Assembly: GCA_964516645.1 (NCBI GenBank)
Contig: CAZEXE010000008.1
Span: forward strand, 1 to 45,517
Direction: 5' to 3'
Length of the DNA: 45,517 bases
From: an uncultured Candidatus Poseidoniales archaeon
GTDB lineage: Archaea > Thermoplasmatota > Poseidoniia > Poseidoniales > Poseidoniaceae
The notes below the pieces were generated by a model that was not told the origin of the DNA, made no database searches, and was given only the letters and a program-made list of their open reading frames with translations. Shown in pieces: positions 15,861-25,590 of this stretch. The stretch's first letter is position 1, and every line of letters starts with the position of its first letter. Made by a program: the position numbers and the translations under genes.

Positions 15861-17249
15861 TCAAACTTTGGCGATAACTTTCATTTCAACCGCTATCGGA
15901 GTAGGTAAGGCACGTATTGCCAAGGTAGTTCTAGTTGGACCAACCCTTCCTAACGTTTCAGCCCACACCTCGTTATATCCTGCAAAATCCCTATCCATAT
16001 CAACCAAGAAAGATGTTACATCGATTACCTTGTCTAAGGATGAGCCTGCTTCTTCTAAAATTCGAGAAATATTTTCGATAACAGCCCTAGTTTGAGCTTT
16101 GATGTCATAATTGAGTGGTTTGCCATCTGCATCCTTAATTGGACCGCCTGGAATTGAATTATCACCTGGTTGTCTTGGTCCAACTCCTGAAAGGTAAATC
16201 AGATCTCCTTCTCTTCTTGCATGAGGATAAGCGCCTACAGGTTTGGGTGCTTTGGAAGTATTCACTGTGTTAGCACCTTCAACAGGGTCATATAGTGCTG
16301 GGCCAGAATTTGTAGATTCTGCGATATGTGACTTTTTCTCAGAGTCTAGTACATTTCGGTCTCCCCCGAAATAATCAACATCGTCTTCATCGTACTCCTT
16401 ATCTCCAGTACCATTGGATTCGGGATCTAGAACAACAACTGCTGCACCAGCACCATGTATAGGTTCGTAAGCAAGAACTTCCCCCGTTAGGTCATTGCGA
16501 TTATCATTCATTGCAGAAAGCCACCACATCGGCTTGAATGCTACTACCTTCTTCACTCTAATCTGATCGTGAATGGTTCTACTTAACTGACCAACGTCCT
16601 CAAGACGCCCTTCAGACAAAAACTCCAAAATTTTCTGATTCCATTCTTCATCTTTTAAGGAATGAATTCTATCTTCATGTGGTTCGATGGGTTCAGTGAA
16701 CATTCTGTTCGAAAGCGACATTACAGAAACAGCTACTGCTTTCTTTCCTTGTGCTTTGATTACATCCATACATGCTTTTGCTAATACCGTGGTCTCGGCA
16801 CGGTTTGAATATACATTTGTAGAACAAATTACCGCAGGAATACGATTATCTGGATTTAGTAATTCCAACGCTACTACTGAACCTACATCGATTGGGAAGC
16901 CATGGTATGCAACAGTGCGTGATTCAAGCCCTCTAGCAATATTCGCTTCATTCCAAGCAATAGCGAATTCTGCATCGATTTTCAAAGAGTAATGTATGCT
17001 TCCCAAATCATGGAAATCCGCATCCACCATCACCCACTCTGGATTCGGGTCGGCCTGTATTTGATGGCCGATTACACTTGGCCATAATGTTGAATAAATG
17101 ATGATTAAATCTGCATCACTATCTTCGATTTGTCTGCGCGCGTCATCATAAGCATCTCTAACTCTTTGCCATCCTTCATTTTTCTCAGGACACAAAACCG
17201 GATGAGGGTGAGCAGGTACAATCAACGATTTGATTACTTCACCAGACAT
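15861..17249 (-). CDS. Fusion protein: non-catalytic LigB-family (class III extradiol dioxygenase, AmnA-like alpha) domain plus C-terminal RidA/YjgF/TdcF (2-aminomuconate deaminase-like) domain
   Basis: The likely start is ATG 17249 (MSGEVIKSLIVPAHPHPVL), 1 nt after the upstream TGA (17253..17251); the track start at 17321 overlaps by 71 nt.

The N-domain is a paralog of the upstream gene, but the SPHW and SHRH His motifs are replaced (YSTLW, SNRM). An acidic linker follows (DKEYDEDDVDYF). The C-terminal ~135 aa carry the RidA signature: PKPVGAYPHARREGDLIYLSGVGP ... TTLAIRALPTPIAVEMKVIA. Confidence 0.75.
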   Translation of the reverse strand: MSGEVIKSLIVPAHPHPVLCPEKNEGWQRVRDAYDDARRQIEDSDADLIIIYSTLWPSVIGHQIQADPNPEWVMVDADFHDLGSIHYSLKIDAEFAIAWNEANIARGLESRTVAYHGFPIDVGSVVALELLNPDNRIPAVICSTNVYSNRAETTVLAKACMDVIKAQGKKAVAVSVMSLSNRMFTEPIEPHEDRIHSLKDEEWNQKILEFLSEGRLEDVGQLSRTIHDQIRVKKVVAFKPMWWLSAMNDNRNDLTGEVLAYEPIHGAGAAVVVLDPESNGTGDKEYDEDDVDYFGGDRNVLDSEKKSHIAESTNSGPALYDPVEGANTVNTSKAPKPVGAYPHARREGDLIYLSGVGPRQPGDNSIPGGPIKDADGKPLNYDIKAQTRAVIENISRILEEAGSSLDKVIDVTSFLVDMDRDFAGYNEVWAETLGRVGPTRTTLAIRALPTPIAVEMKVIAKV

Positions 17250-17250
17250 T

Positions 17251-18144
17251 TCATGCACCCCAATTTCGACAAGGCCATTCCATGATTGCATTTCCAGTCC
17301 CAATGATGGTTCCATAACCATGCAAGATTGCAGGCTCGCTAGGTGTTCCCATCGCAGATAACAACCAAGTCAATGCTCCCCCATCTGCTTCAGCAATCGC
17401 TTGTTCGCAGAACTCCGGCATTTCATTGATAATTTGCTGAGAATTGCCCTGTCGCATCATCTCAATCATTCTCATATCCCACAAATGCATTGCATGACTT
17501 GTAATGTGCTCTTTGCTCATATCCTCGGGAGGATTTGTCTCGGTTACGAAGTGGCGGTGAGATAGTGAATTACTTGCCAATAGCAGACATTTCTTGCCAC
17601 TCTGCTCAATCGCCTTGGCGGTAGAACGTCCAAGTTCAATCATCATCTCTTGCATGACTTCAACTGAATAGTAGGAAAGACTACGATTGGAAGAGATGGA
17701 GACTATCGGTTTATCCCATTCAGGCCGAACCATATGACACGATACAATCGTGCCATAATCAACTCTAAAATCAGGATTGTTCATCATCTTGACAGACATT
17801 CCCTCCGACTTGGCTTGATCGTGGATTGCTTTAGCAAGTTCAACATCGATTGTAATATCATAATTGAATCTGAACAGATTTGGGAATACTGGATCTACAC
17901 TCTTTGAAGAACACTTCTCAACCCCAACAAAATGAGTCCCCACATATGTTTGCCAATGTGGAGAAAGGACCACGATAACATCGTAGTCCACATCTTTAAG
18001 CGAATCTCTCAGTCTTTCATATCCCCAACGCAATTGTTCCCAACCGCCTTCAGAAACAGGCTCATTTTGCTCTGGATTCTCCGCATAAACCAGATGTGGC
18101 GGGTGCGGGGCAAGACAGCCAGCGACTATACCTCCCTTCGCCAT
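17251..18144 (-). CDS. LigB-family class III extradiol ring-cleavage dioxygenase, catalytic (beta-like) subunit
   Basis: 297 aa. The N-terminal CLAPHPPHLV, then VVLSPHWQ and SNSLSHRHF, match the conserved His-containing motifs of LigB/AmnB-type enzymes. Confidence 0.78.
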   Translation of the reverse strand: MAKGGIVAGCLAPHPPHLVYAENPEQNEPVSEGGWEQLRWGYERLRDSLKDVDYDVIVVLSPHWQTYVGTHFVGVEKCSSKSVDPVFPNLFRFNYDITIDVELAKAIHDQAKSEGMSVKMMNNPDFRVDYGTIVSCHMVRPEWDKPIVSISSNRSLSYYSVEVMQEMMIELGRSTAKAIEQSGKKCLLLASNSLSHRHFVTETNPPEDMSKEHITSHAMHLWDMRMIEMMRQGNSQQIINEMPEFCEQAIAEADGGALTWLLSAMGTPSEPAILHGYGTIIGTGNAIMEWPCRNWGA

Positions 18145-18200
18145 AACCAGACCAAACGGTTCCGCATCTTCTATTCATCGGCTACGCTTGGCCCCAATAC

Positions 18201-24008: not shown

Positions 24009-24017
24009 ACAACCACC

Positions 24018-24803
24018 TCAAATTGAGCGCATTCTTCCGCCATCTACCGCAAGTGAAACGCCCCTGATTCCGCCAGAAATAGGCATGCACAAGTAGGCAA
24101 TTGCTGCACCGGTTTCAAGAGGATCAATCAAGCGACCTATCGGAACTTGAGACATCCATCCTGTTTGAATATCTTCGATACTCTTTCCAGTTTTCTGATT
24201 TATTGAAGCCGCAAGCGAGCCAAGTCGATCGGTGTCTGTGAATCCTGGAAGAATATTGTTAATTGTAATACATGGTGGTAATTCGCGTGAAAGTGATTTC
24301 GCCCAAGAGGCCATGGCACCGCGCAAAGTGTTTGAAAGGCCGATATTTGGAATCGGTTCCCTAACCGAAGTAGAAATGATGTTCACAATACGCCCCATTC
24401 CTGCCGACTCCATCAGTGGAACTACTCCCTTCACCATTGTATGGGCCGCGTGTAAATGCCGTTTGAAAGGAGCCTCAAAATCCTCTACTTCATTTTCGAG
24501 CAGAGGCCCTCCAGGTGGTCCCGCTGCATTGTTGATTAAGATGTGGCATTCTTCAATTGAAGAAATAAATTTACCAATTGCTTCTTGATTCTCTAAATCT
24601 AGGCTAATTGCTGTGTGTCCTTCCCCTTCAAGAGATGCAACCAAATCGTGTGGATTCCTACTAACTGCAGTAATTCTCGCACCCGCTTTTGCTAACATTT
24701 TTGCCGTAGCAGCCCCGATTCCTTTGGACGCCCCGCATACAATTGCATGCTTTCCAGACAATGCTGCCGAACTAAATGGGAAGTCATCTCCTAGCCAGTC
24801 CAT
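24018..24803 (-). CDS. Short-chain dehydrogenase/reductase (SDR) family protein with an atypical active-site region
   Basis: It has the Rossmann motif VCGASKGIGAAT and the NNAAG motif. By hand alignment the canonical YxxxK is replaced by S-N-T-L-R. The preferred start is ATG 24803 (MDWLGDD); the alternative at 24860 overlaps the upstream gene by 26 nt. Confidence 0.75.
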   Translation of the reverse strand: MDWLGDDFPFSSAALSGKHAIVCGASKGIGAATAKMLAKAGARITAVSRNPHDLVASLEGEGHTAISLDLENQEAIGKFISSIEECHILINNAAGPPGGPLLENEVEDFEAPFKRHLHAAHTMVKGVVPLMESAGMGRIVNIISTSVREPIPNIGLSNTLRGAMASWAKSLSRELPPCITINNILPGFTDTDRLGSLAASINQKTGKSIEDIQTGWMSQVPIGRLIDPLETGAAIAYLCMPISGGIRGVSLAVDGGRMRSI

Positions 24804-24834
24804 GTCAATGCCAAGCAGCGCTGGGTATTGAACC

Positions 24835-25590
24835 TTACAACCAATCGCGAATTGTCTCAACCTGAGTTAACCAATCATCACTCGCTACATCAATGATTGA
24901 AAAATGGTCACCAGGCAACCATATTTTTTGAATCTCAATACCCTTAGCTTTCATAGCACGTACATAAGATTCGGATTGTATCCATGGGACTTCAGTATCC
25001 GCTTTTCCATGCATCAAAAGCACAGAAGTTTGAGGAGGATTATCGATAGGATTGATTCTGCTCCAAACCGCTTCATTTCCTTCCGGCACACATCCAACCC
25101 ATCGTCGTACTGCATCTCCTTCATCAGATAAATTTGCATGATCTGCTGCCACTAAATCTGCAATTGGTGCTTGAGCGATGCACAGCCATGGTTTTCGCTC
25201 AGCAACTGCTGACATCAGTAATGCTAAATGGCCACCTGCTGAATGACCCATAATCATTGAACGGACAATATCAATCCCCGGCAACAAGGCAAGTTGTCCC
25301 CACGCTCTCATCACATCAGAGAGGGTATCCATCCATACTCCTTCATCTCCTAACTCCCAGCCTTTGAATTCAATATTCCAAGCAGCGATACCTTGCTCTG
25401 CTAAATCCTCTGCGATTGGCGCCATCAAATCCAAAGTGAATTTTTTCTTCCAAAATCCTCCATGTATCAACATGACACACGGGATGCCTTCATCCTTCTG
25501 ATAAGGCGAAGGCTCATCTGGCATGTACAAATCAGCGTACTGCCATTCCTCTGCACCCCACTGCATGCGGTCTACAGGCAAAGAAATCAA
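24835..25590 (-). CDS. Alpha/beta hydrolase, arylformamidase/esterase-like
   Basis: It has the oxyanion-region motif HGGFW, the nucleophile elbow GHSAGGHL, and later HGKADTEV and GDH. A TTG at 25590 lies 1 nt after the aspS stop; the alternative ATG is at 25566. Confidence 0.75.
   Translation of the reverse strand: MISLPVDRMQWGAEEWQYADLYMPDEPSPYQKDEGIPCVMLIHGGFWKKKFTLDLMAPIAEDLAEQGIAAWNIEFKGWELGDEGVWMDTLSDVMRAWGQLALLPGIDIVRSMIMGHSAGGHLALLMSAVAERKPWLCIAQAPIADLVAADHANLSDEGDAVRRWVGCVPEGNEAVWSRINPIDNPPQTSVLLMHGKADTEVPWIQSESYVRAMKAKGIEIQKIWLPGDHFSIIDVASDDWLTQVETIRDWL

Follow-up and report, generated by a model that had tools for sequence, protein, structure and literature searches.

The gene set considered here occupies positions 15,861 to 25,590 of a 45,517-nucleotide stretch of DNA (contig CAZEXE010000008.1, hereafter the window) from a Poseidoniales (Marine Group II, MGII) archaeon, and several described catabolic systems provide a frame of reference for it. 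In the 4-hydroxyacetophenone (Hap) pathway of Pseudomonas fluorescens ACB, an aryl ketone is converted to an ester by a Baeyer–Villiger monooxygenase (BVMO), the ester is split by a hydrolase to a phenol, and a two-subunit dioxygenase, a semialdehyde dehydrogenase and a reductase complete the sequence. The Hap enzymes are a class B FAD BVMO, an alpha/beta esterase and a hydroquinone dioxygenase, acting on a phenol and not on an aniline. The amnBACD cluster of Pseudomonas sp. AP-3 and the cnbCaCb-D cluster of Comamonas CNB-1 (plasmid pCNB1) share with the window a two-subunit LigB dioxygenase, the beta-then-alpha gene order and a non-catalytic alpha subunit, as well as an aldehyde dehydrogenase (ALDH) of the 2-aminomuconate semialdehyde dehydrogenase (AMSDH) type and a RidA-family deaminase gene beside amnB. 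The bacterial kynurenine pathway (kynA-kynB-kynU, with the nbaC-F or 3-hydroxyanthranilate branch) starts with tryptophan 2,3-dioxygenase (TDO) and arylformamidase, both of which recur in bacterial operons related to the window, and it converges on the same conversion of 2-aminomuconate semialdehyde via 2-aminomuconate to 2-oxohex-3-enedioate, carried out by AMSDH and a RidA-type deaminase, the role of the latter being described in bioRxiv 10.64898/2026.06.05.730449.

In the window, nine minus-strand open reading frames (ORFs) run from 25590 down to 15861 in the order alpha/beta hydrolase, short-chain dehydrogenase/reductase (SDR), TPR-like protein, luciferase-like flavin monooxygenase (LLM), Asparaginase_II-family amidohydrolase (hereafter the AsnaseII-like protein), ALDH, panB, amnB and amnA::RidA. 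The preliminary description of this DNA, which proposed a non-canonical ring degradation of the kynurenine/2-aminophenol type, gave this order, the single strand, the coordinates and the motifs HGGFW, GHSAGGHL and NFRFFA exactly as they are found, and its core reading is borne out by the enzyme identities and by bacterial operons that carry TDO and KynB. We consider it likely that the region is an archaeal, partly dispersed version of a conserved aerobic tryptophan/kynurenine gene set, which would proceed through aminophenol ring cleavage and bypass kynureninase, KMO, HAAO and ACMSD. The presence of amnB and amnD in MGII has already been named by automated pipelines; what is new is the operon, its connection with TDO and the route proposed, and a literature search found no account of AmnBA in archaea or of a kynurenine route of the LLM/asparaginase type.

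Ring-cleavage enzymes and their bacterial operons

Families of the window ORFs were assigned with Pfam and NCBIfam, and their closest solved relatives were sought by PDB sequence search. AmnB matches solved beta subunits of 2-aminophenol 1,6-dioxygenase (8ihg_A, 2.1e-112; 3vsg_B, 5.7e-108); it is 54% identical to CnbCb, 54–60% to enzymes for plain or chloro-2-aminophenol, 52–69% to its orthologues in the bacterial operons and 74–96% to those within Poseidoniales. In an alignment with CnbCb/CnbCa and with AmnB/AmnA of Ensifer, AmnB keeps the equivalents of His13, His62, His195 and Glu251, of which His13, His62 and Glu251 form the 2-His-1-Glu iron site of CnbCb, while His195 is its catalytic histidine. 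In the same alignment, all iron-ligand and catalytic histidine positions of AmnA are substituted. AmnA matches the solved alpha subunit 3vsg_A at 6.3e-39 and is just 29–31% identical to CnbCa and to Ensifer AmnA, while the whole fusion is 50–66% identical to its bacterial operon orthologues. The RidA domain has as its best PDB match the 2-aminomuconate deaminase 6izh (6.8e-27) and shares 43% identity with the RidA encoded immediately before amnB on the Ensifer plasmid, which makes the domain a candidate deaminase of 2-aminomuconate or of 2-aminomuconate semialdehyde. RidA is fused to AmnA in 14 of 22 bacterial loci and encoded separately in L085 and L123; the fusion suggests that the deaminating activity stays near the unstable ring-opened product.

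The best PDB matches of the ALDH are AMSDH entries (4i1w, 1.3e-131), and a residue alignment with 4i1w places equivalents of Cys302, Glu268, Arg120 and Arg464 in the archaeal protein, Arg120 and Arg464 being the pair that holds the carboxylate of the substrate in the Pseudomonas fluorescens enzyme. Its identity is 44–45% to the AMSDH of amn/cnb clusters and 46–59% to the operon orthologues. The LigB alpha/beta pair with its RidA fusion (PF02900 on both subunits, PF01042 on the fusion C-terminus) and the ALDH8/HMSADH-like character of the ALDH had been recognized before, and all three families fall into clades that fit the function then proposed, their nearest characterized relatives being AMSDH, AmnB/AmnA and 2-aminomuconate deaminase. 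As judged from these relationships, the LigB pair is a true 2-aminophenol 1,6-dioxygenase of the AmnB/AmnA type, and AmnB, AmnA, ALDH and RidA are together predicted to be a bona fide set of the amnB-amnA-amnC-amnD type. In NCBI records, homologues of AmnB/AmnA in both archaeal metagenome-assembled genomes (MAGs) and bacterial plasmids carry the label ‘tRNA U-34 5-methylaminomethyl-2-thiouridine biosynthesis protein’ (P0009, P0071, P0102; plasmids NZ_CP142043 and NZ_CP098810); since AmnB matches solved 2-aminophenol dioxygenases at 2e-112, we regard this label as a misannotation.

Orthologues of SDR, LLM, AsnaseII-like protein, ALDH, AmnB, AmnA and RidA occur together in one compact operon in diverse bacterial phyla, and on sequence grounds the orthology of the window genes to these operon genes is clear. 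A protein search with the LLM returned only near-identical Poseidoniales proteins; a search of cluster representatives, followed by a profile built from distant members, then reached bacteria, and a metagenome scan added 80 loci with a GC content of 0.44 to 0.74. The model case is L123, in which nine genes, mostly with 4-nt overlaps, run TDO-SDR-LLM-AsnaseII-ALDH-AmnB-AmnA-RidA-KynB; its TDO scores 399 bits, above the TIGR03036 equivalog cut-off of 390.7, and its KynB gives a full-length match of 198 bits to the arylformamidase model TIGR03035, below the cut-off of 223. Variants of this arrangement include SDR-LLM-AsnaseII-ALDH-...-AmnB-AmnA::RidA-Cyclase in Myxococcota (L086), SDR-LLM-ALDH-LigB-LigB-AsnaseII with RidA further downstream in Bdellovibrionales (L085), SDR-LLM-AsnaseII-ALDH (L088) and TDO-SDR-...-LLM in Planctomycetota (L084). 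Counted only in bacterial loci with enough flank for the gene in question, the SDR precedes the LLM in 46 of 58, the AsnaseII-like gene follows it in 37 of 51, and ALDH is present in 29 of 39 and AmnB in 19 of 32; TDO lies upstream in 23 of 45 and KynB is present in 12 of 28, the last two counts being lower bounds from single-probe tblastn.

Clustering of all ORFs around the bacterial loci revealed no further recurrent family, including any decarboxylase, hydratase or aldolase, and none of these three was found in the window. Kynureninase, KMO, HAAO and ACMSD are likewise absent from the window and not recurrent in the bacterial loci. The earlier statement that the lower-pathway genes (4-oxalocrotonate decarboxylase, hydratase, aldolase) and kynureninase are missing is thus upheld; TDO, likewise named there as missing, lies inside bacterial versions of the operon and is a listed MGII core gene elsewhere in the genome. 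In Actinoplanes sp. Pm04-4 (L087, 9001-11372), an LLM homologue (47%) stands beside a PrnB-like protein (PF08933), with TrpA/TrpB and an alpha/beta hydrolase nearby; PrnB belongs to the TDO/IDO superfamily. Ring-cleavage genes are absent from this locus, which may represent a biosynthetic use of the same oxygenase.

The proposed route from tryptophan and its alternatives

A PDB search with the LLM sequence gave no match. The AlphaFold (AF2) model of the LLM (pLDDT 90.7) is matched by Foldseek to LuxA, RslO1, SsuD, RutA and the type II BVMO 4uwm (3,6-diketocamphane monooxygenase, 3,6-DKCMO) with probability 1.00, the luciferases, RslO1 and 4uwm at TM scores of 0.6–0.8, so that the protein is modeled as a TIM barrel of the luciferase/BVMO type; luciferase-type enzymes are known to perform Baeyer–Villiger chemistry. 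The family is small and distinct, with 313 cluster representatives at E<=1e-3 among 1.84 billion, and the window protein is 47–64% identical to those of the bacterial loci and to named proteins of Planctomycetota, Bdellovibrionales, Myxococcota and Actinoplanes. An orphan homologue (45%) is encoded on the megaplasmid pCLA1 of Streptomyces clavuligerus (L083, 532574-533779) beside an eCIS-core-domain protein and an EEP-family gene, with no pathway partners nearby.

The AsnaseII-like protein belongs to a separate and strongly conserved subfamily of serine amidohydrolases and matches the class 3 asparaginases of R. etli at only about 1e-16. In an alignment with 8cly, it keeps the SxxK and SHNG motifs and both zinc-site cysteines, features that, like the PF06089 domain, it shares with the class 3 L-asparaginases ReAIV and ReAV of Rhizobium etli. 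Its zinc site reads CSGEH and not CSGKH, with the lysine replaced by glutamate, and hence departs from the Cys-Lys-Cys zinc site; its identity is 28–31% to plasmid asparaginases as against 69–80% to the bacterial operon orthologues. The substrate is probably not free asparagine.

The SDR was correctly described as atypical: the catalytic tyrosine of the YxxxK motif is gone from it and from every orthologue examined, the orthologues having SN--TxR in its place. Its identity to the SDR that immediately precedes the LLM in bacterial loci is 42–59%, and its closest PDB entries are uncharacterized SDRs. Clustering of ORFs around the bacterial operons found no recurrent canonical flavin reductase, which leaves the Tyr-less SDR as the sole flavin-reductase candidate in the operons, and it may serve the LLM as FMN reductase, because it stays with the LLM where other genes are absent (L084, L126, L131). 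Alternatively, it may reduce the ring-opened enoate product to 2-oxoadipate, which would account for the absent lower pathway.

For MGII, a published KEGG-based table (PMC6336850, Tully 2019; Supplementary Data 10, ‘MGII Core’ sheet) gives paired frequencies, read here as those in MGIIa and MGIIb genomes, of 0.88 / 0.92 for TDO2/kynA, 0.75 / 0.97 for amnB, 0.80 / 0.96 for amnD and 0.82 / 0.95 for dmpC/xylG/praB. The supplementary tables of the same work do not list kynureninase, KMO, HAAO, kynB or AFMID, and the main texts of PMC6336850 and Rinke 2018 are silent on the TDO and amn genes of MGII. As MGII thus has a core TDO and no annotated pathway downstream of it, the cluster is the obvious candidate for its continuation.

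Within this gene set, the ring-cleavage half of the pathway is strongly supported by the sequence relationships: AmnBA is predicted to open an o-aminophenol ring, and the ALDH and the RidA domain to take the resulting semialdehyde to 2-oxohex-3-enedioate. For the early steps, we put forward tentatively, and with less than even confidence, a Baeyer–Villiger oxygenation of kynurenine or N-formylkynurenine by the LLM, followed by release of L-aspartate and 2-aminophenol by the AsnaseII-like protein, the aminophenol then passing to AmnBA::RidA and the AMSDH-type ALDH. The route would begin with TDO, whose gene lies elsewhere in Poseidoniales genomes, and with a formamidase, possibly the hydrolase beside the SDR, which together would yield kynurenine. 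Kynurenine is an electron-rich aryl ketone. The FMN-dependent LLM would place an oxygen atom between the ketone and the aryl ring, giving the beta-aspartyl 2-aminophenyl ester or, if an O-to-N shift follows, N4-(2-hydroxyphenyl)asparagine. Aryl migration would thereby lead to a beta-aspartyl ester or N4-aryl-asparagine, exactly the type of substrate for an asparaginase-like Ser-Lys amidohydrolase, and the AsnaseII-like hydrolase would split it into L-aspartate and 2-aminophenol. AmnBA would then open the 2-aminophenol-type ring to 2-aminomuconate semialdehyde, which the ALDH would oxidize and the RidA domain deaminate, in either order, to 2-oxohex-3-enedioate, while the Tyr-less SDR would either supply FMNH2 to the LLM or convert 2-oxohex-3-enedioate into 2-oxoadipate. 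On this scheme tryptophan (C11) would yield formate (C1), aspartate (C4) and a C6 diacid. We infer that the route offers a role for every conserved gene and balances the carbons, with a logic like that of the 4-hydroxyacetophenone pathway.

Several observations weigh against this interpretation. A search with profile HMMs of the window and 85 archaeal loci (1.38 Mb) found neither TDO nor KynB within 10 kb of the cluster, so that in Poseidoniales the link to tryptophan comes from the bacterial operons and the published KEGG-based table. In the bacterial loci themselves, TDO is found in about half and KynB in less than half (lower bounds), and some of them (L084, L126) have TDO-SDR-LLM with no ring-cleavage genes nearby. 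The hydrolase gave 80 PDB matches at E<=10, and no kynurenine formamidase is among the 60 best, which were inspected and reach E 0.05. The ALDH has TIGR03216 as its best NCBIfam match with 515.7 bits, under the equivalog cut-off of 693, for which reason it is filed as a member of the clade and not as an equivalog. The Baeyer–Villiger and aspartate-release steps proposed for the LLM and the AsnaseII-like protein, finally, are drawn only from enzyme class, operon logic and the Hap analogy.

The same tryptophan-linked operon could also work through other early chemistry, in which the LLM, as an analogue of KMO, hydroxylates kynurenine, AmnBA cleaves 3-hydroxykynurenine or a substituted o-aminophenol, and the asparaginase-like enzyme strips the ring-opened product of its amino-acid side chain or of an amide. 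In favor of this, 3-hydroxykynurenine belongs to the o-aminophenols, LLMs also hydroxylate (a point based on the fold), the MGII tables contain no KMO or kynureninase, and AmnA, being about 30% identical to the AmnA of 2-aminophenol degraders, may go with a different substrate pocket. This chemistry, however, gives no evident role to a Ser-Lys amidohydrolase, as removal of the side chain needs C–C cleavage; moreover, the ALDH keeps both arginines for the carboxylate of unsubstituted 2-aminomuconate semialdehyde, and AmnB shares 54–60% identity with enzymes whose substrate is plain or chloro-2-aminophenol, and we therefore hold it to be unlikely. Utilization of the ring for NAD biosynthesis, through LigB-type cleavage of 3-hydroxyanthranilate, was considered and set aside: MGII has core nadA and nadC, and the ALDH and deaminase of the cluster would destroy the ring-opened product instead of allowing it to cyclize.

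That the closest characterized enzymes come from degraders of nitrobenzene and chloronitrobenzene, and that the JGI name for the protein is 2-aminophenol 1,6-dioxygenase, would suit a classical meta-cleavage set for xenobiotic or environmental 2-aminophenol (nitroaromatic type, like amn/cnb/nba), acquired from bacteria, with LLM, AsnaseII-like protein, SDR and hydrolase as unrelated neighbors; but in Poseidoniales the genes belong to the core and are highly conserved, the lower meta-pathway genes of pCNB and Ensifer are absent from the window and the bacterial operons, and LLM, AsnaseII-like protein and SDR co-occur with AmnBA, TDO and KynB across domains, all of which makes such an origin very improbable. 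A still slighter chance attaches to mere synteny of unrelated housekeeping genes in a streamlined genome, with only amnB and amnA-RidA cooperating: Poseidoniales genomes are highly syntenic, panB, TPR, LON-domain and EEP genes lie inside the string in various lineages, a plus-strand ORF splits it, and amnB-amnA, together with the permease, stand apart from the rest in two loci (L021, L023), yet synteny within an order cannot explain why bacteria of differing phyla and GC carry seven of the genes as one overlapping operon. In the Rut system, the LLM would correspond to RutA, the amidohydrolase to RutB, RidA to RutC, the hydrolase to RutD and the SDR to YdfG. This one-to-one mapping of enzyme classes, together with RutA among the structural matches of the LLM and RutC among the weak matches of RidA, could point to a Rut-like or other system for degrading N-heterocycles (pyrimidine, pyridine); it is hardly credible given that no NCBIfam RutA match was obtained, that RidA is closest to 2-aminomuconate deaminase and fused to AmnA, that the alpha/beta hydrolase lies outside the bacterial operon, and that the operons carry a bona fide TDO, a KynB-like arylformamidase and an aromatic ring-cleavage dioxygenase. 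Tryptophan/kynurenine breakdown via aminophenol ring cleavage thus remains the interpretation that we prefer.

Locus layout and conservation across Poseidoniales

AmnB relatives were scanned in one genome per species, which gave matches in 216 species (the nearest in UBA10, 96%), and 13 window proteins were compared by tblastn with the best 80 of these 216 species loci; AmnB-like proteins also have thousands of close relatives in marine metagenomes. Among the 80 genomes, 79 are labeled as MAGs of Poseidoniales or of euryarchaeotes (Marine Group II). L035 (CAXRJJ010000012.1), from a MAG labeled as the alphaproteobacterium Yoonia sp., has a Poseidoniales-type cluster (AmnB 79%, AsnaseII-like protein 86% and panB 77% identical to the window) and has probably been misbinned, being archaeal. 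On all contigs of sufficient length, variants aside, the order is hydrolase-SDR-TPR-LLM-AsnaseII-ALDH-panB-(opposite ORF)-amnB-amnA::RidA-permease, and the arrangement is far from chance. The gene neighborhood is thus kept in relatives, as the Poseidoniales loci attest, and its seven-gene core is further found as one operon in several bacterial phyla. In seven species (L046, L048, L049, L054, L055, L057, L064), the whole LLM-AsnaseII-ALDH block lies in inverted orientation between the TPR gene and panB; because these three genes move as a unit and are always together, we regard them as an indivisible module. AspRS-hydrolase-SDR shifts as one block in L058 and L063, and an SDR match lies downstream also in L052. 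Within-order synteny by itself nevertheless proves no functional link, because unrelated genes, for a LON-domain protein and an EEP nuclease, are also inserted into the string in other lineages.

Table 1. Predicted features of the gene set and its immediate surroundings, with positions in the window
Feature	Positions	Strand	Family evidence and remarks
Alpha/beta hydrolase	24835..25590	-	Pfam BD-FAE 58 bits, Peptidase_S9 52 bits; HGGFW oxyanion motif, GHSAGG nucleophile elbow
Atypical SDR	24018..24860	-	Pfam adh_short_C2 114 bits; probable start Met20 at 24803
TPR-like protein	23211..24008	-	Weak Pfam TPR_12 / TPR_MalT matches
LLM (luciferase-like flavin monooxygenase)	21954..23165	-	Pfam 27.9 bits, exactly on the cut-off
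Asparaginase_II-family (class 3 asparaginase-like) amidohydrolase	20834..21949	-	PF06089, 167 bits
ALDH, 2-aminomuconate / 2-hydroxymuconate semialdehyde dehydrogenase clade	19458..20879	-	Pfam 513 bits, NFRFFA; probable start Met15 at 20837
panB, ketopantoate hydroxymethyltransferase	18605..19420	-	TIGR00222 337 bits, over the cut-off
Small predicted membrane ORF	18201..18611	+	No Pfam match; conserved position
amnB, predicted catalytic beta subunit, LigB class III extradiol	17251..18144	-	PF02900; PDB 8ihg_A, 3vsg_B
amnA domain, predicted non-catalytic alpha subunit	16424..17249	-	PF02900; N-terminal part of the fusion, mechanical ORF 15861-17321
Acidic linker, ~45 residues, AmnA to RidA	16287-16423	-	Within the fusion ORF
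RidA/YjgF domain	15861..16286	-	Pfam Ribonuc_L-PSP (PF01042) 87.7 bits; C-terminus of the AmnA fusion
APC-family amino-acid permease with C-terminal EF-hand pair	14097..15752	-	Pfam AA_permease 141 bits + EF-hand_7

Tight junctions occur only at AspRS/hydrolase, hydrolase/SDR, LLM/AsnaseII, AsnaseII/ALDH and amnB/amnA. The hydrolase starts 1 nt past the AspRS stop, the AsnaseII-like gene starts after a 4-nt gap past the LLM stop and meets the ALDH gene in an ATGA overlap, and the gap between amnB and amnA is 1 nt if the start of AmnA is counted at Met25. From this spacing, the LLM/AsnaseII, AsnaseII/ALDH and amnB/amnA junctions are predicted to be real cases of translational coupling. The string as a whole comprises several transcription units and not one, because the conserved plus-strand ORF at 18201-18611 sits between panB and amnB; the idea of the single-strand set as one unit therefore has to be given up, this ORF splitting it and the tight junctions being confined to five places. 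By tblastn, the plus-strand ORF is matched in the same position and orientation in 40 of the 80 Poseidoniales loci (31–84% identity). The TPR stop and the LLM start are separated by 45 nt (23166-23210, minus strand), and this spacer contains a perfect 9-bp hairpin, CCCTCTCCC-TTA-GGGAGAGGG, directly before the GTG start, which could be a terminator or a regulatory structure.

The hydrolase has as its best PDB match a carboxylesterase (9x6a, 3.5e-17). As to its earlier description as arylformamidase-like, it shows generic motifs only and, among the 60 best PDB matches, no specific similarity to solved kynurenine formamidases. Of the 53 Poseidoniales loci with an SDR match, 47 have the hydrolase next to the SDR, a neighborhood confined to Poseidoniales, and from this context it may be a candidate N-formylkynurenine formamidase that substitutes there for the bacterial KynB. 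In L145, an archaeal-type contig less close to the window (AspRS 73%, metK 62%), a Formyl_trans_N (PurU/formyltransferase-like) protein is encoded at 8296-9117 just upstream of the SDR, in the slot of the Poseidoniales hydrolase, which is suggestive at most of a slot that handles a formyl group.

Counterparts of the hydrolase, the TPR protein and panB were not found in the bacterial loci. The TPR protein, which is 38–89% identical within Poseidoniales and 27–28% in the archaeal-type contigs L156, L159, L161 and L162, is encoded between SDR and LLM in archaeal lineages only and is probably not a pathway enzyme; panB, present in 75 of 80 Poseidoniales loci, is likewise a matter of archaea-only synteny. 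Both had been counted among the members of the set, but, having no bacterial counterpart, they are, like the plus-strand ORF, syntenic bystanders. A functional link through panB and beta-alanine was considered and dropped, as panB is missing from all bacterial operons. The permease lies downstream of amnA::RidA in 59 of 80 Poseidoniales loci and also in L161, and was not found in bacterial operons; that it imports the substrate is speculative. In L145 its position is taken by a Na+/H+ exchanger (19409-20890), likewise with EF-hands, and calcium-binding tails seem to be a recurring feature of transporters in these archaea.

The flanking genes (AspRS, metK, RFC, TFB, a tRNA methyltransferase and giant secreted proteins) have housekeeping or surface functions. 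Four very large predicted secreted or surface proteins, at 2420-11470 (3016 aa), 11517-14096 (859 aa), 28373-31642 (1089 aa) and 32526-35918 (1130 aa), fill much of the window, and one giant surface protein has a long Asn/Gly/Thr repeat of the GGNNTGNNT type.

Significance and comparison with known systems

Proteins and peptides are the main diet of MGII archaea, which count among the most abundant heterotrophic organisms in surface seawater. The gene set offers a plausible downstream pathway for their core TDO, whose products from tryptophan would be formate, ammonium, a C6 diacid and probably aspartate. With the operon present in Myxococcota, Bdellovibrionales, Planctomycetota and many uncultured bacteria, the set would represent a general, overlooked branch of a textbook pathway; if the reading is true, it would amount to a previously undescribed, widespread route of tryptophan catabolism that is core in MGII and present in several bacterial phyla. 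It also assigns testable functions to three uncharacterized subfamilies, namely the LLM (about 300 cluster representatives), the conserved Asparaginase_II protein and the Tyr-less SDR, and it brings to light that NCBI records systematically misname AmnB as a protein of tRNA U34 modification.

Compared with the kynurenine pathway, the LLM, the asparaginase-like hydrolase and the LigB-type dioxygenase of the new set would replace kynureninase, KMO, the cupin-type 3-hydroxyanthranilate dioxygenase and ACMSD, and the product of the side chain would be aspartate in place of alanine plus CO2. The resemblance to the Hap pathway lies in the logic of the steps, whereas the enzyme families are entirely different, so that the analogy is functional only. 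From the class 3 L-asparaginases, the AsnaseII-like protein differs in the exchange of the zinc-site lysine for glutamate and in its constant position beside an LLM. With respect to the amn and cnb clusters, the window lacks the decarboxylase, hydratase and aldolase genes of the lower pathway, which pCNB and Ensifer have, and a tautomerase gene as well; its RidA is fused to an AmnA of only about 30% identity; and its ring-cleavage genes are tied to the LLM, the Asparaginase_II-like hydrolase and the atypical SDR, as well as, in bacteria, to kynA and kynB. Finally, whereas the amn and cnb clusters are a plasmid-borne xenobiotic trait, the set in the window consists of core genes of an abundant marine archaeon.

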